Below, piece after piece: positions 2,891 to 29,503 of a stretch of DNA of 37,208 bases. The translations under genes were made by a program, and so were the position numbers. Every line of letters starts with the position of its first letter. Position 1 is the stretch's first letter. Origin of the DNA: Acidimicrobiales bacterium (GTDB lineage Bacteria; Actinomycetota; Acidimicrobiia; Acidimicrobiales; VFJN01); assembly GCA_046595835.1 (NCBI GenBank), contig JBKJSO010000084.1:1-37208 (forward strand), in the 5' to 3' direction. The notes under the pieces were generated by a model. It was not told where the DNA came from, did no database searches, and was given only the letters and a program-made list of their open reading frames with translations.

Positions 2891-3544
2891 TTAGTGGTTG
2901 GTCACTCGGCGGGTGAGGCGGTCGGCGCCGGCATCGAGGCCGGGGAGCTGGGCCTGGAGCGGGAGCCCGAGGCTGGCGACGCGGTCGAAGACGAGGGTCT
3001 CGGCCTCAGCCCAGCTGGTGGCGCGTGGCCCGTCGACATCGCGGTTGTAGGGAGCGTCGAACACGATCACGTGGTTGCCTGCCTGGCGCAGGGCGGCGAC
3101 GTTGTGCGACGCATCGTCGATGTAGGCGTCGGCCTCCACCTCGGGCTTGGCGCCGAGGAAGCAGATGTCGCGATAGGGGATGCCCTCGTCGTCGAGCCAG
3201 GCCACCGTGTCGGCCACCGCGATCGCATGCCCCCAGTTCACGCACAGCCGGTGGGTGATGATCCGGATCCACACGCCTGCGTCCGACAGCCGCCACAGGG
3301 CCTCCGCCACGCCGGCCATGGCTGGCATGTGGCGGAACATGCGGTGCTCGAGCACCGCCACCCGATGGAGGCGGTCGAACTCGTCGGGACCGTCGATGCC
3401 CCACTCGGCGAAGTCCCACGACCGGGCGTCGCCGAGCGTGTCGGGGTCGACGTCGCGGTCCTTGGCCACCACGCGTCGGAAGGCGGCCGTGTAGTCGCCG
3501 CACACGCCGTCGAGGTCGACCCCGAGGATGAAGTCGCGGCTCAT
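2891..3544 (-). CDS. HAD-superfamily 5'(3')-deoxyribonucleotidase-like phosphatase (NT5C family)
   Basis: I place the start at ATG 3544 (MSRDFILGVDLDGVCGDY). The 64-aa upstream extension of the listed ORF is P/R/S-rich and overlaps the next gene. HAD motif I is DLDGV; IITHR and YIDDASHN are the later HAD motifs. Confidence 0.8.
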   Translation of the reverse strand: MSRDFILGVDLDGVCGDYTAAFRRVVAKDRDVDPDTLGDARSWDFAEWGIDGPDEFDRLHRVAVLEHRMFRHMPAMAGVAEALWRLSDAGVWIRIITHRLCVNWGHAIAVADTVAWLDDEGIPYRDICFLGAKPEVEADAYIDDASHNVAALRQAGNHVIVFDAPYNRDVDGPRATSWAEAETLVFDRVASLGLPLQAQLPGLDAGADRLTRRVTNH

Positions 3545-3554
3545 GGGGCCATGC

Positions 3555-4229: not shown

Positions 4230-4239
4230 GGCGCGGACC

Positions 4240-7200
4240 CTATCGGCGCCTGGCGCCGCGGAGGGCGATCACGATCGCGTCCACGACGATGGCCAGGACC
4301 GCGAACCAGGCGATCGGGTGGGCGCGGTGAAGCTCGGCCGCCCAGTCCAGACCAGGGGCGATGTGGTGGCGCAGCACCGTCAACACGACGTAGCTGGCGC
4401 TGGCGCCCATGGCGGCGGGAGCCGCCAGCGCGGTGACGCGGCGAGGGAGTGCGCCGCGGGCGACGACGAGCGTGAGGAGTCCCACGAGGAGCGCGACGAC
4501 CGGGCTCACGAGCGCCGCGCCGAGCCCGGCCAGCGCGACGGCCACGGCCGCTGCCGCGGGGTAGGACAGGGGCGGTCCCGCAGTGTCGACCGAGGCCAGC
4601 GTTAGGGAGTCGGGCCCACCTGCCTCCCAGTCGCTCGCCGCGGGCCGCCGCGTGCGCTTGGATCCGGCCGGTCGCCGAACCGTGAGGCCAATGCAGACGA
4701 GCGCGGCGGCGAGCGACCCCCACAGCGCAAGGTCGACCCGATGCTGGGGCGTGAAGCGGAGCGACACCTGGAAGGAGGCGCGACGGGGGCTGATCTGCCA
4801 CCCGTTGGCGAACCCGTCCACGAGGGTCGGCGCGCCGAGATCCTTACCGTCGATGGTGGCGTGCCACCCGGTGTTCCAGCTCTGGCCGAAGGCGAGCCAG
4901 AACGGAGAGTCAGGCCGCGCCCCGCTGACGCGCAGGTCGACGGCGTCGGCGCTCTGGTGCACGACGGTGGTCGTCGGGGGCGGGCTCGAGGCTGACGCTC
5001 TGGCGGCGGCCCGGAGCGTGCTCGTCGGGTCGACGGTTGGAGCACCGCCTGCCCCAGAGCGCAGCACGAGGCGGTCGATGTCGACGCCCGTGTCAGAGCC
5101 CCGCGCGGCACGGAGCTCGTGGTCGCCGCTCGTCAGGTCCACCGGCGCCCCCGTGCAGGAGGTGAGCGGGAGCGGCGCTCCTGTGACCGCGTCGGCGGCC
5201 GTGCCCGTCACCTGAACGGGCAACGGGTGCCCGTCGAGCGTCACGAGGTCGGTGCGGCATCCGGTGGCAAAGGCGCCGCGCGGCGCCGGCCGCTCGAAGC
5301 CGGCCGCCCCGAGCTCGGCGACCGCCACAGGCATCGTGCGGAGCTTGTGGGTGCGCCAGTCCGGCGTGTCGATGCCGCGCACGGCCTCGATCGTCACCCG
5401 CAACCGGCTCGCGCTGACCGGGCCCGGGAGCGCGATGGACGCCGTCCTCGTTGTGCCGGGGCGCGCCCCATCGGCGATGGTGGGTACTGCCGCGGACGTC
5501 ATCCGCTGTCCGTCGACCTCGATCCCGAGCTGCGTGGGCACCGAATGGCGGCCGTCAGCTAGCAGCGTGAGGTCGAGGTGGTCCACGACGCGTGGCGACG
5601 GGCTCGTCACCTCGATCCACTGGCCGGCTTGCTCGCCGAACGCGGGGGTCCAAGCCGTCGCCCGATCGCCATCGAGAGCGGCGCTGGCCCGCGCCGCCGG
5701 TCCGGCCATCCGGCTCGAGGACGCGGCGATCGTGCCGGCGCTCGGATCGAGCTGGCGGTCGAGCAGGGCATCGGCGGCGCGGGGCGAGAGGCGGGCGGTG
5801 CCGCTCAGCGCGAAGCCGCGGGACGTCGGCAGATCGAGGAGGCGAACGAGCGCCGGCTCCTCGTCGAGGCGCTCGACATCGGTGGGCGCTGAGCGCAGGC
5901 GGGTGAGCACGACCGCGAGGGCATGGTCGGACGAGGCGGGCCCTGCTCGGCGCAGCAGGTCGACGGGTGGGCGGATGGCTTCGTCGAGGCGGAGGTCGCC
6001 GACGCGGACCTCGGCGAAGCCGGTGCTCGTGAGGCCCCCGGAGCGGGCGTGTCGGCCCGCGGTGTCGGCGAGCACCTCGATGGTGAGGCGCGAGAACGTG
6101 CGTCGGCCGATGTCGACGGTCTGGCCGGTTCCGCTGCGGGAGCGGTCGTTGAGGTCGACGGCGACCTGCGGCCCGCCGTCGAAGCGCAGCGCGACCCGGC
6201 TGACCCATCGGTTGATCGGCGGCGGGGGAGCGAGGAAGGTGAGCGTGCTCGTGGTGACCGGTCGCGTGGTGCGCAGCTCGAGCCGCTGACCTTCCACCGG
6301 GTCATCGCGCGAGGCGCGCCACGAGGTGGTGGGGTCGCCGTCGACCGCGTTGGCCGGGCGATCCTCGGGGAGGTACTCGTTGCGGCCGCCGTAGGACGTG
6401 GCGTTGGCGGTGATGCCGCCTCGGTGGATGGCGACGGTGCGGGCGTCATCGGTAGCCGTGAGGAACACGGGAAGGCGGGCGTCGCTGCGGTCGATGGCCA
6501 GCGGAGCGAGCCCGGCCGGCTCCGTGTAGCCGTTGGTGAAGCGGATCGTGCCCCACCGCTCGCCGCGGCGGCGGTTGCTGTCGGTGACGACGAGGATCGC
6601 ACCAGCGTCGAGGGCGGCGCGGACCTCGACGTCGGACATGGACGCGCTGTAGCGCAGCAGCTCGGTGCCGTCGATGAGACCAGCGGCGGCACTGTCGACG
6701 AGGCCGTCGCCGTCGCCGGCCACCACCACCGGCGCGGTCGTGGCCTTGGCGGTGACGATGGGCAGGGCGCGGGTGACGGGCAGGACGGTGACGGGGAAGG
6801 GCTCGGCACCGCCACGGGGCGAGCTCAGCTCGAGCTCATCGAGCATTGGTGCTGGTCGCTGGGCCACGTTGGCCGTCGGTGCGCCGAACTCCGTCGCCTC
6901 GCCGATGCCGGGCGCGCCGAGGAGGAAGCGCCACAGATCGCGCGGCCGCGGTGTGTCGTAGTGCTCGTACTGGAGGTCGTCGCGCACGAGGAGCTGGCCG
7001 GCGCGCATGGTTCGGGCCATCGGGGCGACCGTGCTCCGCTCGGCGATGTTGGCCTGGAGGCGCCCGTCGAAGGCCTTGAGCAGGTTCCACGCCGCGACCC
7101 CGCTCATGGGCTGCAGCTCACGGGCGACGATGGGGCGGTCGGTGAGGCCCGGCGTGACGGGATCGACGGTGGTGCCCCAGCGGTAGGACGTGAAGTCGGT

Positions 7201-8553
7201 GCCGGGCACCTCGAGCACACGCGTGCCATCGTCGGTGGCGTCGAGGTGGGCACCGGCCTCCACCCAGTAGCGCGGGATCGCCTCGGGTCGGCGCAGGTTC
7301 TCGGGCACGAAGGTCCGCTGCCACAGCGGCGGGAGGCTGAGGACCACGAGGCCGATCACCACGGCGCTGACGGGGAGCGCGGCCCTGGGCACCCGCCGGC
7401 CGAGCGCCTCTGCGCCGGCGCCGAGCATCACGCTCAGGGCGAGGATGACGAGGGGCGCGGCGCGCGGCATGCTCCGCATGGCCATGCCGACATCGCTGTG
7501 CAGGAACGAGCGCAGCCCGCGACCGAAGGGTGGTGGGTGGTCGTACGGGTACACGCCGACGGCCAGCGTCAAGCCGACGGCGGCGAGCAGCACCACGAAG
7601 GACCGCTCCCGCCAGCGAGCGAGGGCGCCACCGGTCAGCGCGAGCACTGGGATCGAGAACGTGGCCAGCAGCAGCCACACCGAGGTCTGGAACGGGCGGC
7701 TCGGTCCTACCCAAGGGCCGAGCGCGTCATCGCCATAGAAGAACCAGTAGCCCAGCCCGCGGAGCACCTCCTGCGCCGAGGATGCAGCTGCCGTCGTCTG
7801 CACCGACTCCGTGTAGCGGTGCACGTCGATGCCATTGGTGGCCTGCACCGAGAGCCCCACGATCCACCAGGCGCTGGTGGCCAGCGTGAGGACGCCGATG
7901 CGGGCGACGGCGGCGGTAGCGCGACCGACCGTCTGCTCCCGAGTGGCCAGGGCCCACAGCACCCACAGCGCAGGGCCGATGCCGACCAGCAGGATGGAGG
8001 TGGCGTTGCTGGTGCCCACCGTGGCGACGACGAGGGCGAAGGCCGCGGGGTGGCGCCAGCTCCTCGTGCGCAGGGCGCGAGCGGTGAGGGCGATCATCCA
8101 GGGCAGTGCGGCGAACGGGAGCAGGATCACCGAGATCCGCACCGCGATGGTGAGCAGGTACGGCGTGAGCGCGTAGGCGCACATCGCCACGCCCACGCCG
8201 TGCCCGCGCCACCCGTAGGTGCGCAGGAGATAGCGCATGCCGAGGCCGGCCGCCAGCATGATCGAGCCGAGCCACAGCCGCTGGGCCACCCAGTCGGGTG
8301 CGCCGGCGTGCTGGAACAGCCAGTAGTAGGGCCCCATCGGCCACAGGAAGCCGATGTTCTGGTGGGTGACCGTGCCCATCCCCACGTGGGGATCCCACAT
8401 CGACCAGGCGCGGGCCAACATCCGATCGGGATCGAGGTAGAGGTACGACTTGGTGTCGGCCACCACCTGGCCGGGTGAGGTGGCCAGCAGCGGGAGGTAG
8501 CAGAGCGCGCCGAACGCGAGGAGCGGGCTGGCCCGACGGAGGCGAGCGCTCAA
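4240..8553 (-). CDS. AftD-like alpha-(1->3)-arabinofuranosyltransferase family protein (DUF3367-type giant GT-C), paralog 1, 1437 aa
   Basis: N-terminal DTKSYLYLDP...WDPHVGMGTVTHQNIGFLWP...GAPDWVAQRLWLG block typical of the AftD family, followed by many TM helices. The large soluble region has two discoidin/CBM-like DGDxxTxW motifs, and there are C-terminal TM helices. TTG start overlaps the GT4 stop (TTGA). Confidence 0.85.
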   Translation of the reverse strand: MSARLRRASPLLAFGALCYLPLLATSPGQVVADTKSYLYLDPDRMLARAWSMWDPHVGMGTVTHQNIGFLWPMGPYYWLFQHAGAPDWVAQRLWLGSIMLAAGLGMRYLLRTYGWRGHGVGVAMCAYALTPYLLTIAVRISVILLPFAALPWMIALTARALRTRSWRHPAAFALVVATVGTSNATSILLVGIGPALWVLWALATREQTVGRATAAVARIGVLTLATSAWWIVGLSVQATNGIDVHRYTESVQTTAAASSAQEVLRGLGYWFFYGDDALGPWVGPSRPFQTSVWLLLATFSIPVLALTGGALARWRERSFVVLLAAVGLTLAVGVYPYDHPPPFGRGLRSFLHSDVGMAMRSMPRAAPLVILALSVMLGAGAEALGRRVPRAALPVSAVVIGLVVLSLPPLWQRTFVPENLRRPEAIPRYWVEAGAHLDATDDGTRVLEVPGTDFTSYRWGTTVDPVTPGLTDRPIVARELQPMSGVAAWNLLKAFDGRLQANIAERSTVAPMARTMRAGQLLVRDDLQYEHYDTPRPRDLWRFLLGAPGIGEATEFGAPTANVAQRPAPMLDELELSSPRGGAEPFPVTVLPVTRALPIVTAKATTAPVVVAGDGDGLVDSAAAGLIDGTELLRYSASMSDVEVRAALDAGAILVVTDSNRRRGERWGTIRFTNGYTEPAGLAPLAIDRSDARLPVFLTATDDARTVAIHRGGITANATSYGGRNEYLPEDRPANAVDGDPTTSWRASRDDPVEGQRLELRTTRPVTTSTLTFLAPPPPINRWVSRVALRFDGGPQVAVDLNDRSRSGTGQTVDIGRRTFSRLTIEVLADTAGRHARSGGLTSTGFAEVRVGDLRLDEAIRPPVDLLRRAGPASSDHALAVVLTRLRSAPTDVERLDEEPALVRLLDLPTSRGFALSGTARLSPRAADALLDRQLDPSAGTIAASSSRMAGPAARASAALDGDRATAWTPAFGEQAGQWIEVTSPSPRVVDHLDLTLLADGRHSVPTQLGIEVDGQRMTSAAVPTIADGARPGTTRTASIALPGPVSASRLRVTIEAVRGIDTPDWRTHKLRTMPVAVAELGAAGFERPAPRGAFATGCRTDLVTLDGHPLPVQVTGTAADAVTGAPLPLTSCTGAPVDLTSGDHELRAARGSDTGVDIDRLVLRSGAGGAPTVDPTSTLRAAARASASSPPPTTTVVHQSADAVDLRVSGARPDSPFWLAFGQSWNTGWHATIDGKDLGAPTLVDGFANGWQISPRRASFQVSLRFTPQHRVDLALWGSLAAALVCIGLTVRRPAGSKRTRRPAASDWEAGGPDSLTLASVDTAGPPLSYPAAAAVAVALAGLGAALVSPVVALLVGLLTLVVARGALPRRVTALAAPAAMGASASYVVLTVLRHHIAPGLDWAAELHRAHPIAWFAVLAIVVDAIVIALRGARRR

Positions 8554-9737
8554 CGGCGGTGGCGGGCGGCCTGCCCGGCCAGCGTGCGCATGACGCCGAG
8601 GGCGGTCGTCTCCCAGGAGAGGGCGGCGGCGCGTGCGATGCCGCCGGCTGACAGTCGCTCACGGAGTGCTCCATCGGTGAGGACCAGCGCGAGCGCGGCG
8701 CCCAGCTCGTCGGCCGTCCCGGGAACGAGCAGCCCGCTCACCTCGTGGCGAACCGCATCGGTGTGGCCGGCGATGCGGGTGGCCACGGCCGGCGTGCCAC
8801 ACGCGGCCGCCTCGGTGAGCGAGAGCCCCCAACCCTCCCGGGCCGACGCCGATGACGCCACCCAGGCCCCTCGGTAGAGCCGCACGAGCCCGGGCTCGTC
8901 GACGCGACCCGTGAGGTGCACCCAGCTCTCCGCATCGAGGCGGCGGATGACGGCGTCGAGGCGCTCTCGCTCGTAGCCCTCGCCGACGATGGTCAGCGTG
9001 AGGCCCGGCACGGACGCGCGGGCGACGGCGGCCGCTTCGATGAGGAGGTCATGGCGCTTCACGGGCACGAGGCGGCCGACCGCGACGATGCTCGGGTGGG
9101 AGGTCTTGGTGCCCCCCGGCGTGAACGCCGTGCCGAGGCCGTTGTGCACCACGTCGATCTGGCGGGACGGGATGTGCAGCAGCGACACGATCTCGTCGCG
9201 GGCCGACTCGGACGGGGTGATGATCCGCGAGCGGCGATAGACGGTGGGTGCGATGCGCCGTTCGATCGTGTCGCCGATGCGGGCCAGTGTGGGGTTGTCG
9301 TCGCCGAGCACCATCTGCCACATCTCGGCGTGCACGTGGTGGAGCATCACGGCTCGAGGACCTCGGTACCAGAGCGGCGAGAAGAACGGCATCCCGTTCC
9401 AGATCTCGAGAAGCGCGTCGGAGGGGCCGTGGCGACCTGCGAGCTCGGCCAGGGCGGCCCGGGGGAACACGAGGTAGCGACCTGCTCTGCGGATCACCCG
9501 GTAGCCGTCGCGTGTCACCGTGTGGGGGTGCCCTGAGGCGAACGAGGAGCGCCAGGTGACCTCGATCCCGGCGGCTGCCCAGTGGCGAGCCAGCTCGGCT
9601 GCGTGCACCTCGGAGCCGCCCGCCTCCACATCCTCGAGGTCGCGCCAGGACAGCAGGTGCACCCTGTGGAGGCCGGCGGCGGCGGCGAGGTCCCCGATCT
9701 TCGCGAGCCCGTCGGAGCTCGGAGACGACGCAGGCAT
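8550..9737 (-). CDS. Glycosyltransferase family 4 (GT-B fold, Glycos_transf_1 type)
   Basis: C-terminal EGWGLSLTEAAACGTPAVATRIAGHTDAV (EX7E region). 395 aa. Confidence 0.9.
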   Translation of the reverse strand: MPASSPSSDGLAKIGDLAAAAGLHRVHLLSWRDLEDVEAGGSEVHAAELARHWAAAGIEVTWRSSFASGHPHTVTRDGYRVIRRAGRYLVFPRAALAELAGRHGPSDALLEIWNGMPFFSPLWYRGPRAVMLHHVHAEMWQMVLGDDNPTLARIGDTIERRIAPTVYRRSRIITPSESARDEIVSLLHIPSRQIDVVHNGLGTAFTPGGTKTSHPSIVAVGRLVPVKRHDLLIEAAAVARASVPGLTLTIVGEGYERERLDAVIRRLDAESWVHLTGRVDEPGLVRLYRGAWVASSASAREGWGLSLTEAAACGTPAVATRIAGHTDAVRHEVSGLLVPGTADELGAALALVLTDGALRERLSAGGIARAAALSWETTALGVMRTLAGQAARHRR

Positions 9738-9779
9738 CGGTTCGACGTTAGCCGAGCGGCCGCGCGGTCCCGGGGCGGC

Positions 9780-10572: not shown

Positions 10573-12255
10573 TCAGCACCGCGTGTAGAGCTCGTACAAG
10601 CCGCGCTTCGGGTCGAAGCGGTCCACGCCGAACCGACGCACCAGGCAGAAGCTCCGCGCCAAGACCCGGTTGGGCTCGTCGGGTCCGAACAGCAACGAGT
10701 CGTTCGGCTCGTTCCAGTCGTCGCGGATCGTGGAGAGGATCACGACGTCGGCTCGGCGCAGCTCGTCGGCCAGCCCCGAGTCCGGGTCGTTGGCCACGCC
10801 GGGATCCATCTCGATGAAGCGGGTGCCGGGCACGAGGTGAGGGAGGAGGTAGTAGAGGAACGCCTCGCTGTAGGGGGTCTTGCGCAGATCGCCTGGCCCG
10901 ACGATCAAGCGGTCACCCGGGTGGGTGACCTGCTCGACCACCGGGAGCATCTCGTTGACAGCCGCCACCGCGTCGCTGCGCTTGTAGGGGAAGGTGCGCC
11001 CGTCGTGCTCGATGATGCCCTCGGTGCGACGATGCCCCAGCGACTGTGCGGTGGCCTCCGCATAGCTCCGGTAGGTGAAGAACGGCGCCACCACCAGGAG
11101 GAGAAGCGCCGGTAGGGCCACGACGGCCAGGCCCGCTCGCCAACCCGTCGGCCCAACTTCGGAGGGAGCGCGCCCCCGGGCGCGCCACAGCTCCACGACC
11201 GCGGCCGGGAGCACCGCGAAGGCCACGCAGCTCACCCATGCGAGGTGCGTGGAGTCGGGGCGCTGGACGGCCTGCGGGAACAGGCCGACTGCGAACGCGG
11301 CGATGGCGAGCAGGCGCCGCTCACCGGTGCGACGCCTTGCGATCACCCCGGCGATGATCAGCACCACGCCCACCACGAGCAGCGCGAAGAACCACAGCCA
11401 GAGCTGCCGCGGCCCGCTGGGCGCCGGCAAGGGCCACGGAGGCTGGTCGAGCGCGCCCGCGCCCTGGAGGAAGCCGTCGAAGTGCCCCGGGTGGGGAGGG
11501 ATGGGCAGCTGGCGCCCCCCGCGCAGGGCAAAGACGGGCTCGAGCACGAGACCGTTCAGTGACGCCCACGGTCCGGCCATGACCACCTGAACGAGGTAGG
11601 GGGAGCAGCCCACCGCGAACCCGAGTGCCAGTCGACGGCGAGCCGAGCGATCGAGGGCCAGCCACACCACGAGACCAGCCGCGCCGAGCGCGAGCACCAG
11701 GTCGAGTCGATAGAGGAGTGCGGCGCCGGCGAGGAGGCCAGCCAGCAGGGCCCGCCGCCCTCGACGGGACGAACCGCCCTCGGCCTCGACCGCCTCCGCG
11801 GCGCTGCACAGCGCCCACAGACCGAGGGCCACGCCGCCCACCCAGGCCATGGCGCTCAGTCCTGAGGGGGTGATCACCATCATGGCGCCGAGGCACGCGC
11901 CCCCGATGGCCACCCACGGTCCCCACGGCCGCAGCAGCCGGTACAGGCCGAAGGCGACGCCGACGTGCTGCAGGTAGCCGACGGCCCGCTCTGCGCCGAG
12001 GCTCACACCGAACACGGCGAACACACCGGCGAGCACCCAGAGGCTCCCGGGGCCGTAGAGGTGGAGGAAGTCGCGGTTGGGCACCTTTCCCGCGAGGACC
12101 ATCTCGGGGAAGGTGAGCATGAACCCCTCCTCCATCGGGGTTCCCTGCGTCAGCCAGAGGCCGCGAAGCGGCGGCAGGGTGGCGAGGAGCACGATGGACG
12201 GGCCCACCCAGGCGACGAGGCCGGTCGCGCGCGGAGGGGGCACCGGGCGCGTCAT
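10573..12255 (-). CDS. Polytopic membrane protein with C-terminal soluble domain; family not recognised; GT-C-like candidate
   Basis: Only the C-terminal part of the listed 888-aa ORF is credible, because the upstream part is antisense to the UbiA gene. Start is either ATG 12255 (MTRPVPPP) or ATG 12300 (MVATVARG). There are 10 or more hydrophobic segments, an acidic first-loop motif PMEEGFMLTFPE, and a soluble tail of about 140 aa. Confidence 0.6.
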   Translation of the reverse strand: MTRPVPPPRATGLVAWVGPSIVLLATLPPLRGLWLTQGTPMEEGFMLTFPEMVLAGKVPNRDFLHLYGPGSLWVLAGVFAVFGVSLGAERAVGYLQHVGVAFGLYRLLRPWGPWVAIGGACLGAMMVITPSGLSAMAWVGGVALGLWALCSAAEAVEAEGGSSRRGRRALLAGLLAGAALLYRLDLVLALGAAGLVVWLALDRSARRRLALGFAVGCSPYLVQVVMAGPWASLNGLVLEPVFALRGGRQLPIPPHPGHFDGFLQGAGALDQPPWPLPAPSGPRQLWLWFFALLVVGVVLIIAGVIARRRTGERRLLAIAAFAVGLFPQAVQRPDSTHLAWVSCVAFAVLPAAVVELWRARGRAPSEVGPTGWRAGLAVVALPALLLLVVAPFFTYRSYAEATAQSLGHRRTEGIIEHDGRTFPYKRSDAVAAVNEMLPVVEQVTHPGDRLIVGPGDLRKTPYSEAFLYYLLPHLVPGTRFIEMDPGVANDPDSGLADELRRADVVILSTIRDDWNEPNDSLLFGPDEPNRVLARSFCLVRRFGVDRFDPKRGLYELYTRC

Positions 12256-12294
12256 CGGCAGGAGGGTAGTCAAGGCGCCGCGCGCGACCGTGGC

Positions 12295-12300
12295 TACCAT
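12295..12300 (+). promoter_or_regulatory. -10-like hexamer TACCAT (TANNNT), exactly 6 nt upstream of the GTG of the UbiA gene; candidate leaderless promoter
   Basis: Sequence reads tggcTACCATcgcgccGTG and there is no Shine-Dalgarno. The hexamer also contains the alternative ATG (12300) of the divergent gene, so the call is ambiguous. Confidence 0.25.
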
Positions 12301-12306
12301 CGCGCC

Positions 12307-13369: not shown

Positions 13370-13675
13370 ATGCTGATGTTCGAGCGCCGCGTCGTGGCAG
13401 AGCTGACCACCTCCGCCGATCCTCAGCTCCGGGGGCAGGTCGAGCAGTGGGTCGACGGCACGCTGCAGGAGATGTCCGACGTGCTCCGCCTCGGCGTCGT
13501 CCTGGAGTCGCTGCTGCTCACCGCCTGGGCGGGCGTGCGCCGACCACCCGATCTCCACGGGCTCCTCGGCTGGCTCGACCGCAGCCCGATCTCGCTGCTG
13601 CGCTCCTACCCCCGTCTCTTTCGGTCGCTGGTGCTGTTCGGCGAGCTCGAGCTGGCCGACGCGGACCGCCGATGA
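13370..13675 (+). CDS. Small hypothetical protein (101 aa) translationally coupled to the GMC oxidoreductase
   Basis: Very high GC3 across the ORF. Its stop overlaps the GMC start (ATGA at 13672-13675). One hydrophobic stretch (LRLGVVLESLLLTAWAGV). No motif recognised. Confidence 0.6.
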   Translation: MLMFERRVVAELTTSADPQLRGQVEQWVDGTLQEMSDVLRLGVVLESLLLTAWAGVRRPPDLHGLLGWLDRSPISLLRSYPRLFRSLVLFGELELADADRR

Positions 13676-22271: not shown

Positions 22272-23840
22272 TCAAGGGTCGGAGCTGAGCGCCTTCGGAA
22301 GGATCGGTGCGTCGCGCCCGGTGCCGCTCGTCCCGCCCGAGGTCCCGGTGGCCTCCTCGTGGTACTCCTCCTCGACGTTGACCTCCCAGATGTCGTGGGA
22401 CGCCCCGTAGAGGTTGTCGACGGTGAGCATGGCCGTGAACATCGAGTGGTCCTGGTTGTTGTACCGGTGCATCCCGTTGCGCCCGATCGGGTGGACGTTG
22501 CGGGTGTGGTCGGCCAGCCAGGCCCGCAGAACGTCGACGTTGGCCTTGTAGTCCTCATCGTAGGTTGGGTACGCCTTGGGCATCCGCACGACGTAGCCGG
22601 CCTCCACGTCCGAGACTCCCATGAGGCCCAGGGACACCAGCTCGGCGGTGCCCTTGGCGATCAGCTCCTCATCGCTGGCCGTCCACCACTCGTCACCCTC
22701 GACGACGGTGTACTCGAGGCCCAATACGTTGCGGTCGCCGTGCACCATGTACGGCGACCAGGACCCGAAGTTCTGGACCCGCATCGTCTTGACCTCCGGA
22801 TCATGGATGTAGATCCAGTTGTCAGTCCAGGCGACCTTGTCCTCGGGCACGACGAGGGCCACCGACAGGAAGTCTCGGAAGGAGAGTGCGTCGGCGGCGG
22901 CCAGGACCGACGCCGGCGCAGGCGGGTCCATGGCCCGGAGCAGGGCCGGGAAGGGCATGGAGGAGATGACATGGTCGGCCGGGAGGGTGCTCTCGGCCCC
23001 AGAGGCGTCGGTGGAGGTGACCGACACCGCGCGACCGTCGCGGTGGGCGATTCGGGTGACCTTGGCACGGAACGCCACTTTGGAGCCCTGAGCCTCCACC
23101 ATCTCGTGGCAGCGCTCCCACATCATCCCGGGGCCGTACTTTGGGTACTGGAACTGCTCGATGAGGCTGGTGACCTGCTTCGAGCTGTCCCGGCGCCTGC
23201 CGGACAGCTGAGCCCGCAGCGGCTCCCAGACAGCGCTCCAGAGCGACATGCCCTTGATGCGCTGGGCGCCCCAGTCGGCGGACATGGCGGAGGGCGGGAC
23301 CCCCCACACCTTCTCGCTGTAGGTCTTGAAGAAGTGCTGGTAGAGCCGCCAGCCGTAGTTGGTGGCGATGTAGCCCTCGAGGGTGGACTGGTCCTTCGGT
23401 GGGTGCACCCGCACCCAGAGGAACGACAGCACGCAACGCGCCGCCTCGACGGGCCCGAGGTTGGTCAGTGCGTTCATGACCTTGATCGGGTAGTCGTAGA
23501 ACTTGCCCTGGTAGTAGATGCGACTCGCTCGGGGTCGCAGCAGGAAGTCCTCGTCGGGCAGGATCTCGTGCCACAGCGCCTCCACCTCGGGCACCTTGGT
23601 GAAGAAGCGGTGACCGCCGATGTCGAAGCGGTAGCCGTCGCGCACAACGGTGCGGCTGATGCCGCCGACGACGTCGTCGGCCTCCAGCACGGTCGCTGTG
23701 GCGCCTCGCTTGCCGAGCTCGTACGCGGCCGTGAGGCCGGCCGGGCCCGCACCGATGACGACGACGTCACCTGGGTTCGCCGTTGGTGCGGGGGGTGCGG
23801 CGGCCGCGGTGACCGCTGGATCTGCAGGGGAGGTGGTCAT
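22272..23840 (-). CDS. FAD/NAD(P)-binding oxidoreductase, UDP-galactopyranose-mutase-like / amine-oxidase fold
   Basis: VVIGAGPAGLTAAYEL dinucleotide fold, GGISRT, DIGGHRFFTK and KTYSEKVWG. The last two resemble the HIFHT and YTEKQWG blocks of bacterial Glf. Confidence 0.8.
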   Translation of the reverse strand: MTTSPADPAVTAAAAPPAPTANPGDVVVIGAGPAGLTAAYELGKRGATATVLEADDVVGGISRTVVRDGYRFDIGGHRFFTKVPEVEALWHEILPDEDFLLRPRASRIYYQGKFYDYPIKVMNALTNLGPVEAARCVLSFLWVRVHPPKDQSTLEGYIATNYGWRLYQHFFKTYSEKVWGVPPSAMSADWGAQRIKGMSLWSAVWEPLRAQLSGRRRDSSKQVTSLIEQFQYPKYGPGMMWERCHEMVEAQGSKVAFRAKVTRIAHRDGRAVSVTSTDASGAESTLPADHVISSMPFPALLRAMDPPAPASVLAAADALSFRDFLSVALVVPEDKVAWTDNWIYIHDPEVKTMRVQNFGSWSPYMVHGDRNVLGLEYTVVEGDEWWTASDEELIAKGTAELVSLGLMGVSDVEAGYVVRMPKAYPTYDEDYKANVDVLRAWLADHTRNVHPIGRNGMHRYNNQDHSMFTAMLTVDNLYGASHDIWEVNVEEEYHEEATGTSGGTSGTGRDAPILPKALSSDP

Positions 23841-23932: not shown

Positions 23933-23937
23933 CGCCG

Positions 23938-26900
23938 GTGTGGCCGCTACCGTGGGCCGTCGTGCGCCTCCAGAGCAAGACGGAGCTGGCAGGCCTGGCG
24001 GCGCTGGCGTACGGCCCCTTCCTGCTCTCCTCGCCGGGGAAGGTGAGCGTCGACAGCAAGCAGGACCTCTACCTGGACCCGGGTCGGTTCCTCGGCCGGG
24101 TGCTGGATCTCTGGGACCCGCACGTGGGTGCGGGAACCGTGCCTCACCAGAACCTGGGGTACCTCTTCCCCACGGGCCCGTGGTTCTGGCTGCTCGAACG
24201 CCTCGGCGCACCGGACTGGGTGGCTCAGCGCCTGTGGCTGGGCACGATCTCGCTGTTCGCCGCGCTCGGAGCCCGGTGGCTGTTTCAGCAGCTCGGCACC
24301 GGACGCGTCGGCGCTCTCGCCGGCGCGCTCGTGTACCTGCTCACGCCCTACCAGCTGGCCTTCACGGCTCGGACGTCGGTGCTGCTGCTGCCCTGGGCTG
24401 CCCTTCCCTGGTTGGTCGGCTGCACGATGCGCTCGACGCGGACCCGCGACTGGCGCGCGCCGTGCCTGCTCGCGCTTGTGCTGCTCGGCGCCGGCGGGAT
24501 CAACGCGTCGTCGCTGCTGCTCGTTGCCGTAGGCCCCGCCCTGTGGCTCGTCATGGAGGTCGGCCGATCTCGTCGCGCCGCGGGCCAGACCCTCGCGGCG
24601 GCCGGCCGCATCGCCCTCGTGGGTGCGGGGATCTCGCTGTGGTGGGCGGTTGGTCTGCGGGTGCAGGGAACCCATGGCCTCCCGGTGCTCCAGCTCACCG
24701 AGAACGTGCGCACGGTGGCGGATGCCTCGACGCCCAGCGACATCCTGCGCGGCCTCGGCAACTGGTTCTTCTACGGGCACGACCGGCGCGGCTACTCCGT
24801 CGACCAGGCCGCCGCCTACGCAGGCGATAGCGACCTCGTCGTGGTGCTCAGCTACTTGGTGCCGATGGTCGCGCTCGCGGCGGCCTTCCTACTTCGCTGG
24901 GCCCACCGCGCCTACTTCGCGCTGCTCGTGGTCGTGGGAACGATCGTGGGGGTCGGGTCGTGGCCCTACGACCACCCCAGCCCGTACGGCTCGCTCTGGA
25001 AGGCCTTCACCACCAACACGTCGTTGGGGTTGGCGTTCCGCAACAGCCCGCGGGTCGTACCGATCGTCGTGCTCGGGTTCGCGGGGCTGGTGGCCGGCGC
25101 GGTCGGGGCGCTGCCGGCGCCGACCTGGCGACGCCTGGCGGGTGGTGCCACTGCGGTCCTGGCCGGGGCGGCGCTGCTCCCCGTCTGGCAGCACGGCTAC
25201 CTCACCGACGGCATGCAGCGCCCCGAGCGCATCCCGCAGTACTGGCTCGACGCGACCCGAGCCATGGACGCCGGCGACCACGGCACCCGTGTGCTCGAGG
25301 TGCCGGGGTCGAGCTTCGCGGCCTACCGGTGGGGCACCACCGTCGACCCGATCACGCCCGGTCTGATCACGCGGCCGTACCTGGCCCGCGAGGTGCTTCC
25401 CTCGGGCACCGCGGCGAGCGCCAACCTCCTCGAGGCGCTCGACCGGCGCATGCAGGCTGGCGTCTTCGAGGGCGGCTCCCTCGCGCCGCTCGCCCGGCTC
25501 CTCGGTGTCGGCACCATCGCGCTGCGGGCCGACCTCGACAGCTCCGGTCGATTCGACACGCCCACCCCGGGGCCGCTGTGGACGTCGCTGGTCCGCGCCG
25601 AGGGTCTCGGACCTCCTCGGCGCTTCGGTCCCCCTGGTGGTGACGGCACCGACCCCTCTCTGCCCTCGGTGGCCCTCTTCGACGTCGAGCAGTCGCTGCG
25701 CATCGTGCGACTGGCTCCGGTGCACAGGCCCGTGGTGCTGGCGGGCGACGGCGATGGCCTCGTGGACGCCGCCGCCGCTGGCATCATCGATGGGTCGGCG
25801 CTGGTGCTGGAGTCAGCAGGGCTGGACGCAGGCTCCCTGGCGGCGGCGCTCGATGCGGACGCCCATCTCGTGGTCACCGACTCCAACCGGCGACGGGTGC
25901 AGACGTGGTTCTACGGGCTGCGCGACACGCGGGGGGAGACCGAGCGCGCTGGTGCCACCGCTCCAGACCCCACTGGCTACGACTTCCGTCTCGACCTGTT
26001 CCCGGGTTCCAGCGACGACAGCCGCACGCTTGTGGAGCAGGTCGGCGGGCGCGTGGAGGCCAGCAGCGCCGGCGGCCCGGAGCGTCCCGAGGATCGCGCC
26101 GGCCATGTCATCGACGGCGACCCCAGCACGGCGTGGCGAGTCGGCGGCTCGGACCCCCGGGGCCAGGCCATCGTGATCGATCCCACCCACCTGGTGCGCA
26201 CCGTCGAGATCCGCCTCGTCCAGCCCACGGTGCCTCCCGGTGGACGCTCCCTGGCACGCGTCCGCATCGAGGGCATCGCCCCCGCCCCTGTCGACGTCGA
26301 TCTCGGGCCGGCCTCCCTCACCGCGGCGGGCCAGGCCGTTCCGGTCGCGTCCGGCGCTGTCGGCCGGTTGCGCATCGAGGTGCTCGAGACGAGCCCGCCA
26401 GCGGGCGGGCCACCCGATGCCACGCCGGTGGGCCTGGCGGAGGTGCGCGTCGGCGCCCTGCGCATCACCGAGACCGTCCGTCCACCAGTGGACCTCCTCG
26501 GGCGCGCTGGGGCTGACCTGGCCGGCCACAGCCTCGACATCGTGCTCACCCGGCTCCGCCGTGGCACCGTCGCCGCGGATCGCCACGACGAGGAGGCACT
26601 TCTCGACCGCAGCCTCGATCTCCCCATCGGCCGCACCTTCGCCCTCACGGGCACGGCCCGGCCCGGCGCTGGTGTCAACCAGGTGTCGATCGATTCCTTG
26701 AGCTGCCGCGCCGACCTGCTGGCCCTCGACGGGGCACCCCTACCCGTGCGCCTTCAGGTCGTCGGGGACGCGTTCGGTCTCACGGAGTGCGCACCCGTGT
26801 CGCTCGCTCCTGGGCGCCACCGGCTCACCTCCGTGCCCGGCAGTGAGAGCGGGATCGATGTCGATCGGGTCGTGCTCGCATCGGCGGCCGACGGTGCGCC

Positions 26901-27612
26901 CGCCAGGGCCGCTCCACGAGGCGACGGAGGGGCGGCCGGTTCGACGGTCGTGGTTCGTCACAATCGCGCTGCGCACCTCGACCTCGACGTCACCACTGAT
27001 GGCCGCCCGTTCTGGCTGGTGCTCGGTCAGAGCCACGACGATGGGTGGTCGCCATCCGTCGACGGGGCGACCGTGGGCGCGCTCCAGCTCGTTGACGGGT
27101 ACGCCAACGGGTGGCTCGTGACCCCCGACGGCCCCGGCACGCTGTCGATCGCCCTGCGGTGGGGCCCGCAGCGCCTGCTCTGGATCGGGCTGACGACCAG
27201 CGCCCTCAGCCTCCTCGGCTGCCTCGTGGTCCTCTGGCGTGGGCGCGGCAGGGCCCTGCCGCCCGACCCCCCGCTCGTCGCCTGTCCCACGCTCCTACTC
27301 GCCACACCGAGCGCCGCACCGCGCCCGCCTGCTGCGATCGCTGGGCTGCTGGCGGCGGGCGGTCTCGCCCTACTGGTGGCGCCCCCGGTCGTCGCGGCGG
27401 CCGCGACCATCCTGCTCGGAGCAGCCCGGCTGATTCGGCGGGGCCCGGTGCTCCTCGCCGCCGCCGTGCCCGCGGTGCTGCTCGTCAGCCGCGTCGCCCA
27501 CCGCCCGTCGCTGGCGTGGGTGGTGGTCATCCTCCTCGCGGCCGATCTGCAGCGCCCACCCCTGGCGGGCGCACGGGGACCCCAATCCTCGGGCGGGGTC
27601 ACGGCATCGTGA
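23938..27612 (+). CDS. AftD-like alpha-(1->3)-arabinofuranosyltransferase family protein (DUF3367-type giant GT-C), paralog 2, 1224 aa
   Basis: DSKQDLYLDP...WDPHVGAGTVPHQNLGYLFP...GAPDWVAQRLWLG aligns with paralog 1. It has one DGDxxTxW motif (HVIDGDPSTAWRVG) and C-terminal TM helices. Confidence 0.85.
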   Translation: MWPLPWAVVRLQSKTELAGLAALAYGPFLLSSPGKVSVDSKQDLYLDPGRFLGRVLDLWDPHVGAGTVPHQNLGYLFPTGPWFWLLERLGAPDWVAQRLWLGTISLFAALGARWLFQQLGTGRVGALAGALVYLLTPYQLAFTARTSVLLLPWAALPWLVGCTMRSTRTRDWRAPCLLALVLLGAGGINASSLLLVAVGPALWLVMEVGRSRRAAGQTLAAAGRIALVGAGISLWWAVGLRVQGTHGLPVLQLTENVRTVADASTPSDILRGLGNWFFYGHDRRGYSVDQAAAYAGDSDLVVVLSYLVPMVALAAAFLLRWAHRAYFALLVVVGTIVGVGSWPYDHPSPYGSLWKAFTTNTSLGLAFRNSPRVVPIVVLGFAGLVAGAVGALPAPTWRRLAGGATAVLAGAALLPVWQHGYLTDGMQRPERIPQYWLDATRAMDAGDHGTRVLEVPGSSFAAYRWGTTVDPITPGLITRPYLAREVLPSGTAASANLLEALDRRMQAGVFEGGSLAPLARLLGVGTIALRADLDSSGRFDTPTPGPLWTSLVRAEGLGPPRRFGPPGGDGTDPSLPSVALFDVEQSLRIVRLAPVHRPVVLAGDGDGLVDAAAAGIIDGSALVLESAGLDAGSLAAALDADAHLVVTDSNRRRVQTWFYGLRDTRGETERAGATAPDPTGYDFRLDLFPGSSDDSRTLVEQVGGRVEASSAGGPERPEDRAGHVIDGDPSTAWRVGGSDPRGQAIVIDPTHLVRTVEIRLVQPTVPPGGRSLARVRIEGIAPAPVDVDLGPASLTAAGQAVPVASGAVGRLRIEVLETSPPAGGPPDATPVGLAEVRVGALRITETVRPPVDLLGRAGADLAGHSLDIVLTRLRRGTVAADRHDEEALLDRSLDLPIGRTFALTGTARPGAGVNQVSIDSLSCRADLLALDGAPLPVRLQVVGDAFGLTECAPVSLAPGRHRLTSVPGSESGIDVDRVVLASAADGAPARAAPRGDGGAAGSTVVVRHNRAAHLDLDVTTDGRPFWLVLGQSHDDGWSPSVDGATVGALQLVDGYANGWLVTPDGPGTLSIALRWGPQRLLWIGLTTSALSLLGCLVVLWRGRGRALPPDPPLVACPTLLLATPSAAPRPPAAIAGLLAAGGLALLVAPPVVAAAATILLGAARLIRRGPVLLAAAVPAVLLVSRVAHRPSLAWVVVILLAADLQRPPLAGARGPQSSGGVTAS

Positions 27613-29503
27613 CGGCGACCCCGAGGTGGCGCAACGTGAGCGCTCGGCGCCACTGGTAGGTGCCGTCGACGAGCACGCGGTGCAGGCGGGCCTCCGGGAG
27701 GAGGACCTCGATGGTGCGGTCGACGACGCGGTAGACGAGATCGATGCGCTCGACCGACGAGCCAGCGGTGCGAGTGATCGAGATCGTCCCACGGGGTGCG
27801 AGGGTGAGATCGCCGTCCCCGCCGGGTTGTACGAGGGTGAGTGATGTCGCCGCGCCGTCAGCCGGGATGCTCCGTGTGAGGGCGCCCGCGCTGGTGGTGA
27901 CGTCGATCCGTGCCCCGGACGCACGAGTCGACGGAGCCGCTCGCACGGCGAGGGTGATCGTCGGTCCGCGCCGTACCTTCACGGGGGTGAGGTGCACCTC
28001 CACGTGCTGTGGGTTCTCGCGCGGTCCGATGTCCTGGGCCGCCACCGACGCCTGCTGCACGAAGGGCCGCCGGTCGGGGCTGTGAGCGATGAGGTCGAGC
28101 ATCGCTGGTCCATTGTCCGCTGCGTAGAGGATGCGATCGTCCAGCTCGCCCTCGTTCGACGAGAAGGGGTTGAGGTACAAGAGGTAGGGAGCAGTGTCGG
28201 CCACGAACACGAGCGCCTGACCGTCGATCCCGGCCACGCTGCTGCGCCACGGCACCTGCTGGAGGCTGATCTCTCGGTTCACCGCGAAGCGGGTGATGGA
28301 CGCGGGCAGCGTGCCGACGACCAGCGCTGCCACCAGCCCAACGGCGAGGCGTCGCCGGTGCTCCCACCAGCGCAGGATCACGGTGGCGATCAGGAGGCAG
28401 ATCGGCGGGTAGAGCGGCAGGTAGTAGATCGGACCGCTGATGCGGGCCGCCATCGACGAGAGGTGGTTGCCCCAGAAGACGAAGTAGCCGAGCGGGAACG
28501 CGGCGCTGAGGAGGACGAGTGCCGCGGTGGATGGCTCACGGCGGCGATGCCACAGGCCCAGCCCTGCGGTGAGCAGCCCCACGTAGCTGCCGACCAGGAA
28601 CCAGGGGAGCAGGAAGGCGTTCTTGGCGGTGGCGCGCAGAGCCGTCGAGACCTTGTAGTCGACGATCTCGAAGGTGGGCATGAGCCGCTTCGTGCCGAAC
28701 CCGAACGTGTCCATCGGATCGGCCGCGGTGATCGGGAAGCTGAGCCAACCACCCGTGACGTGTCGGTTGTAGGCGAGGGTGGCCGCCACGAGGGGAACGG
28801 CGCCGACACCGCAGATCACCAGCGAGCGCACCACCCGGGGCCAGCGGGCCCGCTCGCGGTACAGGGCGAAGGCCGCGAAGGCGGCCCCCCAGAGCACCGC
28901 GTCGTAGGGGCGGGTCATGAAGATCCACCCCAACAGGATCCCCGCGCCCAGGATGCGCAGGGGGCGGCTGCGGCGGAGCCCGCTGAGCAGCAGCGCACCA
29001 ACGAAGAGGCCGAGCCCGAGCGTGAAGAGGTAGCTGAGGTAGGCGCCACCCTGGATGGGCAGGATCGGCGACGCCACCATCAGGGCGGCGCCCAGGGTGG
29101 CGATGCGATGGTCGCCGAACAGCTCGAGGCCGATGGCGTAGGTGCCGAGGACGGCCAGCGCCGCGCCGAGGAGCAGGGCGTTGCCCGCTGAGCCGGTCAC
29201 GACCGCGGCGGCCAGGAGCACGAGGGGCCAGCCCAACGTGTACTGGGTGAAGAACGTCCCCCCGGTGCCGCGGGCGGAGAGCCAGGGCTGGAACAGATCG
29301 GGGTAGCCACCGTCGGCGGCCGTGAGATGGCCGGCTCGAAGGGCATCGACCTGCCAGAGGTACACGGGCTCGTCCCGGTTCCACGAGTAGCCGGGGAACA
29401 GGGCGTGGCGGGCCCAGAGCGCGAGTAGCGCGGCCGCGAGCGCGAGCACCGCCGCCGGCCAGTGGTCCCGCCATCGGTACGTGGGGACGGTCGGCTCGGG
29501 CAT
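27599..29503 (-). CDS. GT-C membrane glycosyltransferase, ArnT/PMT-like, with a C-terminal soluble domain of about 190 aa
   Basis: I place the start at ATG 29503 (MPEPTVPTYRW). The first-loop motif is WNRDEPVYLWQVDAL (a DE motif). About 11-12 TM helices. The 3' end overlaps AftD-like paralog 2 by 14 nt. Confidence 0.7.
   Translation of the reverse strand: MPEPTVPTYRWRDHWPAAVLALAAALLALWARHALFPGYSWNRDEPVYLWQVDALRAGHLTAADGGYPDLFQPWLSARGTGGTFFTQYTLGWPLVLLAAAVVTGSAGNALLLGAALAVLGTYAIGLELFGDHRIATLGAALMVASPILPIQGGAYLSYLFTLGLGLFVGALLLSGLRRSRPLRILGAGILLGWIFMTRPYDAVLWGAAFAAFALYRERARWPRVVRSLVICGVGAVPLVAATLAYNRHVTGGWLSFPITAADPMDTFGFGTKRLMPTFEIVDYKVSTALRATAKNAFLLPWFLVGSYVGLLTAGLGLWHRRREPSTAALVLLSAAFPLGYFVFWGNHLSSMAARISGPIYYLPLYPPICLLIATVILRWWEHRRRLAVGLVAALVVGTLPASITRFAVNREISLQQVPWRSSVAGIDGQALVFVADTAPYLLYLNPFSSNEGELDDRILYAADNGPAMLDLIAHSPDRRPFVQQASVAAQDIGPRENPQHVEVHLTPVKVRRGPTITLAVRAAPSTRASGARIDVTTSAGALTRSIPADGAATSLTLVQPGGDGDLTLAPRGTISITRTAGSSVERIDLVYRVVDRTIEVLLPEARLHRVLVDGTYQWRRALTLRHLGVAVTMP

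Follow-up and report, generated by a model that had tools for sequence, protein, structure and literature searches.

In mycobacteria and corynebacteria the arabinan pathway runs through the UbiA-family enzyme Rv3806c, the phosphatase Rv3807c, the DprE1/DprE2 pair and Rv3789, and then through the transferases AftA-D and EmbA-C, while mannan is made via Ppm1. DprE1, itself a drug target, is a VAO-type flavoprotein with a FAD_binding_4 domain and DprE2 is a classical short-chain dehydrogenase/reductase (SDR) of ~250 residues, and mycobacterial arabinogalactan and lipoarabinomannan are the targets of ethambutol and benzothiazinones. Here we analysed a locus that resembles this pathway in part, located on a stretch of 37,208 nucleotides from an Acidimicrobiales bacterium (assembly GCA_046595835.1, contig JBKJSO010000084.1, positions 1 to 37,208; hereafter the window), at positions 2891-29503. 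The class Acidimicrobiia is abundant in soils, oceans, sponges and activated sludge, and its cell envelope is, to our knowledge, essentially uncharacterised. A second point of reference is provided by the three-component pentofuranose systems of Citrobacter youngae O1/O2, where a UbiA-like synthase fused to a HAD phosphatase gives undecaprenyl-P-ribofuranose, a single GalE-like SDR makes the xylofuranose donor, flipping by a MATE protein has been proposed, and a GT-C glycosyltransferase of family GT136 carries out the transfer (Kelly et al., PNAS 2024, PMC11127046). The general scheme of lipid-linked donors used by GT-C enzymes is known already.

Compared with the mycobacterial pathway, the Acidimicrobiales locus likewise encodes a UbiA phosphoribosyltransferase scoring above the cutoff of the same curated model, AftD-family GT-C proteins with carbohydrate-binding modules and C-terminal transmembrane helices, a GT2 resembling dolichyl-phosphate-mannose (DPM) synthase, many GT-C proteins predicted to act outside the membrane, and a flavoprotein with NAD(P)-dependent reductases where the epimerase would be expected. 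However, in place of DprE1/DprE2 there are a GMC oxidoreductase with a 101-residue partner and two extended SDRs, the phosphatase is an NT5C-type HAD enzyme whereas Rv3807c is of a different family, and one AftD paralog carries Tyr in place of an essential Asp. Furthermore, no window gene matched an Emb, AftA, AftB, AftC, GlfT or mycolyltransferase family, as the original prediction for this DNA had already noted, or a GtrA-type Rv3789, and the host is a non-mycolate in whose cultured relative with the syntenic locus no arabinose was detected. The Citrobacter systems share the UbiA-like polyprenyl phosphoribose synthase, a phosphatase of the HAD family, GalE-like SDRs able to alter a pentose, and GT-C proteins with extracytoplasmic domains, but here the phosphatase gene is separate and at the far end of a divergent operon, there is no MATE flippase in the locus, two SDRs and a GMC oxidase stand where Citrobacter has one SDR, seven GT-C proteins replace one side-chain transferase, and the host belongs to the Actinomycetota and not to the Gram-negative bacteria with O-antigen. 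We consider it probable that the locus assembles a cell-envelope glycan, either a wall polysaccharide or a lipoglycan, largely at the outer face of the membrane and from two donors, a polyprenyl-P-pentofuranose and a polyprenyl-P-hexose.

Genes were called using GC content at the third codon position together with Pfam and NCBIfam scans, as the 72% GC seen all along the window causes spurious frames to dominate raw lists of open reading frames (ORFs). This gave 17 tightly packed genes over 26.6 kb, with intergenic spacing of -14 to 109 bp, and the ends of the interval coincide exactly with where A, the HAD gene, stops and where the membrane-protein gene P starts (Table 1). They form two divergent operons, F-E-D-C-B-A leftward and G-Q-H-I-J-K-L-M rightward, followed by N (-), O (+) and P (-), and there are 4-bp overlaps at Q/H, I/J, L/M and C/D, a 7-bp overlap at K/L, and 10-bp gaps at A/B, B/C and J/K. 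GT-C genes account for 63% of the bases in the interval and, because the arrangement also recurs in 24 Acidimicrobiia genome loci, the clustering is not due to chance. All seven large polytopic membrane proteins that had been predicted are present (C, F, K, L, M, O and P), and the predicted accessory enzymes (Ppm1-like, Rv3806c-like, GT4, UDP-galactopyranose mutase (UGM)-like, alpha/beta hydrolase and HAD) were each borne out by family or Protein Data Bank (PDB) matches; that inventory had, however, overlooked four genes, Q, H, I and J, which lie between the UbiA gene G and K.

The least familiar components are F, K and L, which gave no Pfam match even at E ≤ 10 and for which there is no NCBIfam model. 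They had been put forward as three unrecognised proteins, which is correct with respect to family models, although they constitute two families and not three, since K and L are 46% identical paralogs. In the K-family alignment, including L, the first-loop residues D60, E65 and D70 are invariant and L shares the D/E/R motif, while in the F family E37, E38, E46 and D57 are invariant; the acidic first-loop motifs described originally thus hold within the K, F and P families, with the acidic residues following the first transmembrane helix in K and F. Both families are large. A word-indexed search returned >1,600 K homologs and an exhaustive profile search gave 5,625 cluster representatives (50% identity) at E ≤ 1e-3, including 1,539 at E ≤ 1e-30; none of 120 listed K homologs has a Pfam domain and those that are named are called "hypothetical protein", bar one JGI label of "MFS family permease". 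For F there are >2000 homologs.

We built AlphaFold2 models of K and F on 36-sequence alignments, which reached a pLDDT of 86 and 84, respectively, and a pTM of 0.87 in both cases. In each model, as in ArnT, the N-terminus forms a bundle of helices and the C-terminus an extracytoplasmic domain of the alpha/beta type. Foldseek comparison of K with the PDB returned ArnT (E 2.4e-6; TM-scores 0.48/0.55), AftA, PglB, STT3, AftD and EmbA/B/C, and comparison of F returned AglB (2.7e-7), ArnT (TM-scores 0.51/0.53), STT3, ALG3, AftB, AftA, AftD, DPY19 and PimE. The top matches were all GT-C proteins at a probability of 1.0, with MFS, MATE and other transporters scoring ≤0.25, which excludes a transporter fold in the models and agrees with the earlier assignment of the unrecognised proteins to the glycosyltransferases. 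On these models K and F have the GT-C fold, and L is counted with them by its identity to K. Sequence identity in the structural alignments was only 10-17% and searching PDB sequences with profiles of the K and P families gave no meaningful match, so that the fold of K is seen by structure comparison only. Likewise, no sequence link was detected among K, F and P, with hhalign probabilities of 0.7, 1.9 and 22%, and we therefore treat these as separate families, without detectable kinship to each other or to any solved GT-C protein. In terms of the GT-C_A class, which includes ArnT (GT83), PMT (GT39) and STT3-PglB-AglB (GT66), the K and F models superpose on ArnT with TM-scores of ~0.5 and share the N-terminal transmembrane bundle, acidic first extracytoplasmic loop and C-terminal extracytoplasmic domain, yet unlike these enzymes K and F match no Pfam, NCBIfam or PDB entry by sequence.

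Table 1. Predicted features of the glycan locus (window positions; aa, amino acids)
Feature	Position	Strand	Basis
A, NT5C-type HAD phosphatase, 217 aa	2891..3544	-	PF06941 1.1e-35; DLDGV motif intact
B, alpha/beta-fold hydrolase, 224 aa	3555..4229	-	Abhydrolase_1, Abhydrolase_6
C, AftD-type GT-C, 1437 aa, "Tyr" subtype	4240..8553	-	PF11847 1.7e-88, PF00754, PF24607
D, GT4 cytoplasmic (Leloir) glycosyltransferase	8550..9737	-	Glycos_transf_1 4e-32, Glyco_transf_4
E, soluble GT2, polyprenyl-phosphate hexose synthase-like, 246 aa	9780..10520	-	PF00535 1e-26
F, GT-C-fold membrane glycosyltransferase, 555 aa	10573..12240	-	AlphaFold2 model and Foldseek; no Pfam/NCBIfam model
Divergent intergenic region, 66 bp, predicted promoter	12241..12306	.	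Gene spacing between the F-led and G-led operons
G, UbiA-family polyprenyl-phosphate 5-phosphoribosyltransferase (Rv3806c-like)	12307..13260	+	NF008978, PF01040
Q, 101-aa protein, no known family	13370..13675	+	Third-position GC 0.90
H, FAD-dependent GMC oxidoreductase, 474 aa, no signal peptide	13672..15096	+	GMC_oxred_N 2.5e-30, GMC_oxred_C 3.4e-17
I, extended GalE-type NAD-dependent SDR epimerase/reductase	15110..16150	+	PF01370 3.9e-33
J, second extended SDR	16147..17181	+	PF01370 3.5e-39; 31% identical to I
K, GT-C-fold glycosyltransferase, 630 aa	17192..19084	+	AlphaFold2 model and Foldseek; no Pfam/NCBIfam model
L, K paralog, 608 aa	19078..20904	+	46% identity to K, blastp 1.8e-153
M, ArnT/PMT-like GT-C, 456 aa	20901..22271	+	PF13231 PMT_2 1.3e-8
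N, FAD flavoprotein, PRK07208 family	22272..23840	-	NF005548, 743 bits
O, second AftD-type GT-C, 1224 aa, "Asp" subtype	23938..27612	+	PF11847 6.6e-82
P, polytopic membrane protein, 634 aa	27599..29503	-	11 hydrophobic segments; weak NF047440 match

With regard to gene boundaries, an 888-residue ORF at 10573-13239 (-) was rejected as a single gene, as its N-terminal third is antisense to the UbiA gene and has no homologs; the true gene is F, for which the public call is 575 residues. Public calls of 630 and 634 residues on this contig, which cluster with the nearest relatives of K and P, support the starts chosen for these two genes.

The two largest GT-C proteins, C and O, both match PF11847 (GT-C_AftD, DUF3367; 297.7 and 275.9 bits, respectively, against a cutoff of 26), confirming the two AftD-like giants of the original prediction. 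Both align end to end with mycobacterial AftD and have hydrophobic segments at both termini; Mycobacterium abscessus AftD (6W98) aligned to residues 14-1340 of C with an E-value of 1e-33 and to O with 2.8e-23. While C has F5/8-type-C and AftD carbohydrate-binding modules and C-terminal transmembrane helices, O gave no Pfam match to a carbohydrate-binding module and is shorter than the ~1400-residue AftD architecture, with 44% identity to C over the N-terminal 920 residues. That architecture has a transmembrane region at the N-terminus, a long extracytoplasmic part bearing carbohydrate-binding modules, and a smaller transmembrane region at the C-terminus. In mycobacterial AftD the residues K39, D41, E251, K361 and D474 are essential (bioRxiv 10.1101/2019.12.22.885152), and in HMMER alignments the corresponding positions read K, D, E, R, D in O and K, Y, E, R, D in C, meaning that O retains all but K361, which is replaced by Arg. 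Tyr at the D41 position is kept in all C-type orthologs, within the motif ADTK[S/Q/T]YLYLDP, and O-type orthologs keep DSKQDLYLDP, so that C and O represent two conserved AftD subtypes. Membership of the AftD family by itself fixes neither the donor nor the linkage of C or O. Homologs have been reported in 11 orders of the class Actinobacteria beyond the Corynebacteriales (bioRxiv 10.1101/2019.12.22.885152), and their presence here, which had been taken as a sign of the arabinan toolkit, does not imply an arabinan.

Two ArnT/PMT-like enzymes had also been predicted. This stands for M, which scores 35.7 bits against a PMT_2 cutoff of 26.1 and gives additional weak matches to DUF2142 and to the archaeal STT3 model. 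For P the support comes from weak profile matches of its relatives: P itself matches only NF047440, the LA_3751 putative-glycosyltransferase model, weakly (2.4e-5), whereas among 36 relatives 24 match NF047440, 4 match ArnT and 20 match DUF7846. The first loop of P contains an S-x-N-R-D-E motif that is invariant in the family (D44, E45), and P is probably a distant ArnT-like GT-C protein with a C-terminal extracytoplasmic domain. Between M and O lies the flavoprotein N, whose family NF005548/PRK07208 is named "hypothetical protein" in NCBIfam. Its best PDB matches are the eukaryote-type UGM enzymes of Trypanosoma cruzi and Aspergillus fumigatus (1e-22, full length), there is no Pfam GLF match, and N appears to be distantly related to UGM of the eukaryotic type. 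N was always found beside a PMT_2/STT3-type GT-C gene, in the window (20901-23840) as well as in loci L013, L026, L028 and L029, and this adjacency raises the question of whether its substrate is a lipid-linked rather than a nucleotide sugar.

The locus encodes both of the lipid-linked donor routes that had been proposed for it, a UbiA phosphoribosyltransferase (G) and a DPM-synthase-like GT2 (E). G scores 351.8 bits against the decaprenyl-phosphate phosphoribosyltransferase model NF008978 (cutoff 207) and has the Asp-rich UbiA motif, NDxxDxxxD, as NDAADVEAD at residues 79-87. The best PDB match of E is the dolichyl-P-mannose synthase of Pyrococcus furiosus (5MLZ; 9.7e-28 over residues 1-235), with a DAD motif at residues 91-93. 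E falls below every NCBIfam equivalog cutoff; its predicted product is a polyprenyl-P-hexose, the hexose being probably mannose. The HAD protein A gave no PDB match, is not fused to the synthase and lies ~9 kb from G in the divergent operon; by analogy with the HAD phosphoribose phosphatase domain of Citrobacter (PMC11127046) it is a candidate 5-phosphatase for polyprenyl-P-5-phosphoribose. A also adjoins B in the relative L030, and B is kept in close relatives. The GT4 gene D overlaps C by 4 bp and this pair recurs in related loci.

Directly after G lies the module Q-H-I-J, the most conserved part of the locus, which sits between UbiA and a K-type GT-C and is the clearest candidate for modifying the lipid-linked sugar. 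H has the GSGAGG motif and the C-terminal His/Asn signature of GMC enzymes, and its best PDB matches oxidise sugar hydroxyls (pyranose oxidases, cellobiose dehydrogenase and 6'''-hydroxyparomomycin oxidase), making it a candidate oxidase of a hydroxyl on a lipid-linked sugar. I and J are 344-346 residues in length, have intact GxxGxxG and YxxxK motifs and look catalytically competent; the best PDB matches of J are SDRs of the UDP-glucose 4-epimerase type (1e-23), and both proteins fall below all NCBIfam nucleotide-sugar equivalog cutoffs. Q has no Pfam or NCBIfam match, but its stop codon and the start codon of H share an ATGA, indicating translational coupling, and it is found directly upstream of H in all 24 Acidimicrobiia loci fetched with H (35-84% identity), with an unnamed small ORF as its counterpart in L028-L031, which makes it a candidate small subunit of the GMC enzyme. 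We rejected Q as a GtrA/SMR-type flippase, as it has one weakly hydrophobic stretch, no family match, and is coupled to H. No DprE1-type (FAD_binding_4 or ALO) or DprE2-type gene was found among the window genes, and the classical SDR further upstream (1027-1806), considered as a DprE2, scores as generic FabG-like.

Given this gene context, it is reasonable to hypothesise that unrelated protein families here perform an oxidise-then-reduce epimerisation of the DprE1/DprE2 kind. An oxidase with two distinct reductases/epimerases could invert C2 and C3, conceivably giving lyxofuranose, a sugar reported as never having been seen in a glycan (PMC11127046). The more specific proposal, that Q-H-I-J is an unrecognised and non-orthologous counterpart of DprE1/DprE2 which acts on polyprenyl-phosphate furanoses and feeds the K-family GT-C proteins with a pentofuranose beyond ribose or arabinose, is one we put forward tentatively and would regard as doubtful.

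To place the locus among its relatives we scanned species-representative genomes with H and mapped every window protein onto the loci recovered. With one exception, the 24 related loci come from Acidimicrobiia, in metagenome-assembled genomes (MAGs) labelled as Microthrixaceae, Iamiaceae or Acidimicrobiales, or from bins labelled to phylum or class level; one of the loci is from a cultured carrier, Actinospongicola halichondriae Hal317 (L031, CP171622.1; DSM 114536). The exception (L014, CAMBEL010000016.1) is titled as a "Bifidobacterium breve" MAG; it carries AftD, GT4, a K-family gene, a GMC gene of 65% identity and two SDRs, and is probably a mislabelled or contaminated bin. Four further contigs of relatives (L028-L031) were examined by neighbourhood. 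The host belongs to the Acidimicrobiales, within the deep non-mycolate class Acidimicrobiia of the Actinomycetota, and as all close relatives are Acidimicrobiia the suggestion that it does not produce mycolates was well founded.

The nearest relatives are collinear over the whole interval and both flanks, sharing NT5C, Gfo/Idh/MocA, SDR, a small ORF and GT2 on the left and HhH-GPD, AMP-ligase, cyclophilin, TetR and an Opp-type ABC transporter on the right. With these collinear flanks, uniform GC (0.68-0.74) and no tRNAs this is a stable chromosomal locus rather than a mobile genomic island, and the label of "island" that it had been given is misleading. Across the class, in the 24 genome loci and the four further contigs, the recurring core is AftD-GT4-GT2-F / (UbiA)-Q-GMC-(SDR-SDR)-K, then a PMT_2-type GT-C and then N, where K is often accompanied by paralogs; the conserved neighbour pairs are D+C, E+F, Q-H-I-J+K and N+PMT_2. 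The A. halichondriae locus contains two AftD genes, GT4, GT2, F, UbiA, Q, GMC, two SDRs, K, a K-like gene and a DUF2142 membrane protein. Relative to the window, L031 and L029 have an additional GT2-methyltransferase fusion and L031 also has an Acyl_transf_3/SGNH O-acyltransferase and the DUF2142-type membrane protein, which suggests that other lineages may make methylated or acylated variants of the glycan. In two long-read MAGs (L007 and L022, MFD01275) the orthologs of C, D, F, K and L were broken into numerous short tblastn matches, a pattern typical of assembly errors of the frameshift kind and not of real pseudogenes. L028 (JGI 3300044737, Acidimicrobiaceae-type) shows a variant architecture, in which a 499-residue protein without a Pfam match replaces the SDR pair after Q-GMC and the locus ends in a Mannosyl_trans2 GT-C gene resembling GPI-mannosyltransferase II.

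In the mechanism that we propose for the envelope glycan, G would move 5-phosphoribose from phosphoribosyl pyrophosphate onto polyprenyl phosphate at the cytoplasmic face and A would strip the 5-phosphate to give polyprenyl-P-ribofuranose. Q-H-I-J could then oxidise and re-reduce a ring hydroxyl of this or of another lipid-linked sugar, using the chemistry of DprE1/DprE2 or of the Citrobacter ORF13 epimerase but with other protein families. E would supply the second donor, polyprenyl-P-hexose, where the hexose is probably mannose, and cytoplasmic priming could involve the GT4 D with a furanose nucleotide sugar from the UGM-like N. After flipping, the seven GT-C enzymes would transfer sugars from the lipid donors, and the conserved pairs suggest D+C, E+F, Q-H-I-J+K/L, N+M and O+P as working modules. 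For the G/A/E/GT-C part of this scheme we argue by analogy with the mycobacterial and Citrobacter systems; a UbiA synthase, HAD phosphatase, GalE-like SDR and GT-C transferase have been demonstrated experimentally in Citrobacter (PMC11127046).

The identity of the pentose can be approached through the cultured carrier. Thin-layer chromatography (TLC) of the whole-cell sugars of A. halichondriae Hal317 showed rhamnose, ribose, mannose and galactose but neither arabinose nor xylose (PMC12263773), which disfavours an abundant arabinan or xylan and fits the three predicted supply routes, with ribose from UbiA, mannose from the GT2 and galactose from the UGM-like enzyme. It also argues against transfer of arabinofuranose from decaprenyl-P-arabinose by C and O. 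The pentose delivered is more likely to be ribofuranose or an unrecognised epimer than arabinofuranose and, with no DprE1/DprE2 in the window, the "arabino-" polymer of the original prediction is doubtful.

Several observations weigh against our interpretation. UbiA is adjacent to Q-H-I-J in just 12 of the 24 genome loci, the closer ones, and is not within ±10 kb in L009-L018, L020-L021, L028 and L029 (F lies directly against Q-H in L009 and L010, leaving no space for UbiA). As UbiA is so often not adjacent, any tie of the redox module to polyprenyl-P-ribose is particular to some lineages and could be coincidental, and in L028 the SDR pair is missing. No window ORF matched a flippase of the MATE, SMR or GtrA type, the chemistry of C may differ given the Tyr that replaces the essential D41, and the GT-C status of P draws on weak profile matches. 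Finally, RNA is a possible source of the ribose in whole-cell hydrolysates, and sugars that are minor or unusual would escape TLC.

The same variation in gene linkage bears on a different explanation, in which H, I and J would act on nucleotide sugars, on the transferred glycan, on a lipid or on polyprenol, apart from the lipid-linked pentose, so that only unmodified ribofuranose and mannose would be transferred. This would account for the half of the genome loci where UbiA is not beside the module and for the retention of Q-H without SDRs in L028; I and J bear no more than a generic resemblance to UDP-sugar 4-epimerases and 3-beta-HSD/HpnA-type enzymes, and the ribose, mannose and galactose of the cultured carrier include no epimeric pentose. 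However, a K-family GT-C gene is almost always right after or beside Q-H-I-J and GT-C donors are lipid-linked, not nucleotide sugars; moreover, neither SDR reaches the nucleotide-sugar equivalog cutoffs and, in the lineage of the window, the genes follow UbiA with translational coupling. We consider this explanation unlikely.

Somewhat less likely again is a true arabinan pathway, where Q-H-I-J would replace DprE1/DprE2 and polyprenyl-P-arabinofuranose would be polymerised into an arabinan or arabinomannan by the AftD-type and new GT-C enzymes. The passing of the decaprenylphosphoryl-5-phosphoribose synthase model by G, the two AftD-family proteins with their carbohydrate-binding modules, the chemical logic that an FAD oxidase with NAD(P) reductases shares with DprE1/DprE2, the similarity of H to oxidisers of sugar hydroxyls, and the position of UbiA as first gene of the Q-H-I-J operon would all fit such a pathway. 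Nevertheless, the cultured syntenic carrier has no arabinose among its whole-cell sugars, AftD homologs without assigned donors occur in many non-mycolate orders, C has no equivalent of D41, and UbiA is not linked to the redox module in every locus. The least probable explanation, that the GT-C proteins place mannose and pentofuranose on secreted or S-layer proteins in the manner of actinobacterial Pmt or of TfpW pilin arabinosylation in Pseudomonas, could draw on the PMT_2 and weak archaeal STT3 matches of M, the oligosaccharyltransferases AglB and STT3 among the structural matches of F, and the dolichyl-P-mannose-synthase-like GT2, but is very improbable given that a set of seven GT-C proteins, of which two bear AftD-type carbohydrate-binding modules, is more suggestive of glycan acceptors and the building of a polymer, that the GT4 and UGM-like enzymes point to a primer or backbone, that the locus contains no obvious gene for an acceptor protein, and that Foldseek likeness among GT-C families does not tell types of acceptor apart.

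Outside the 17 genes, a truncated GT2-like gene occupies 3-680 (+) and the region 1027-2874 (+) encodes a FabG-like classical SDR and a Gfo/Idh/MocA oxidoreductase similar to inositol dehydrogenase or UDP-GlcNAc 3-dehydrogenase; as these left-flank genes are collinear in L030, the functional locus may reach to the left of 2891. Between them, at 690-959 (-), is an 89-residue protein that has two hydrophobic helices and matches DUF2516 weakly, a candidate small membrane component which nothing ties to flipping, and an unnamed 89-residue ORF occupies the same position in L030. The right flank (29735-37208) encodes an HhH-GPD DNA glycosylase, an AMP-dependent ligase, a cyclophilin, a mycothiol-maleylpyruvate-isomerase-like protein, a TetR regulator and Opp-type ABC ATPases with a permease; it is collinear in the relative L026 and seems to have no connection with the glycan locus. 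No structured RNAs were found in the window.

In the literature searched we found nothing joining Acidimicrobiia with arabinofuranosyltransferases, no functional treatment of AftD homologs outside the mycolata, and no link between GMC oxidoreductases and decaprenylphosphoryl sugars. The novelty of the combination lies in its host class, in its pairs of uncatalogued GT-C families and of AftD subtypes, and in the Q-GMC-SDR-SDR module. As this locus shows, machinery that combines a lipid-linked pentofuranose with GT-C enzymes is not confined to the mycolates, and appears in a deep-branching sister class with different parts. The locus defines two large glycosyltransferase families that lack a Pfam or NCBIfam model, and Q-GMC-SDR-SDR may provide an alternative route to the epimerisation of lipid-linked sugars. 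The cultured carrier, A. halichondriae DSM 114536, makes these predictions directly checkable. If Q-H-I-J does act as the counterpart of DprE1/DprE2, then K/L and F would found new GT-C families in the CAZy classification and would build an envelope polymer specific to the Acidimicrobiia.

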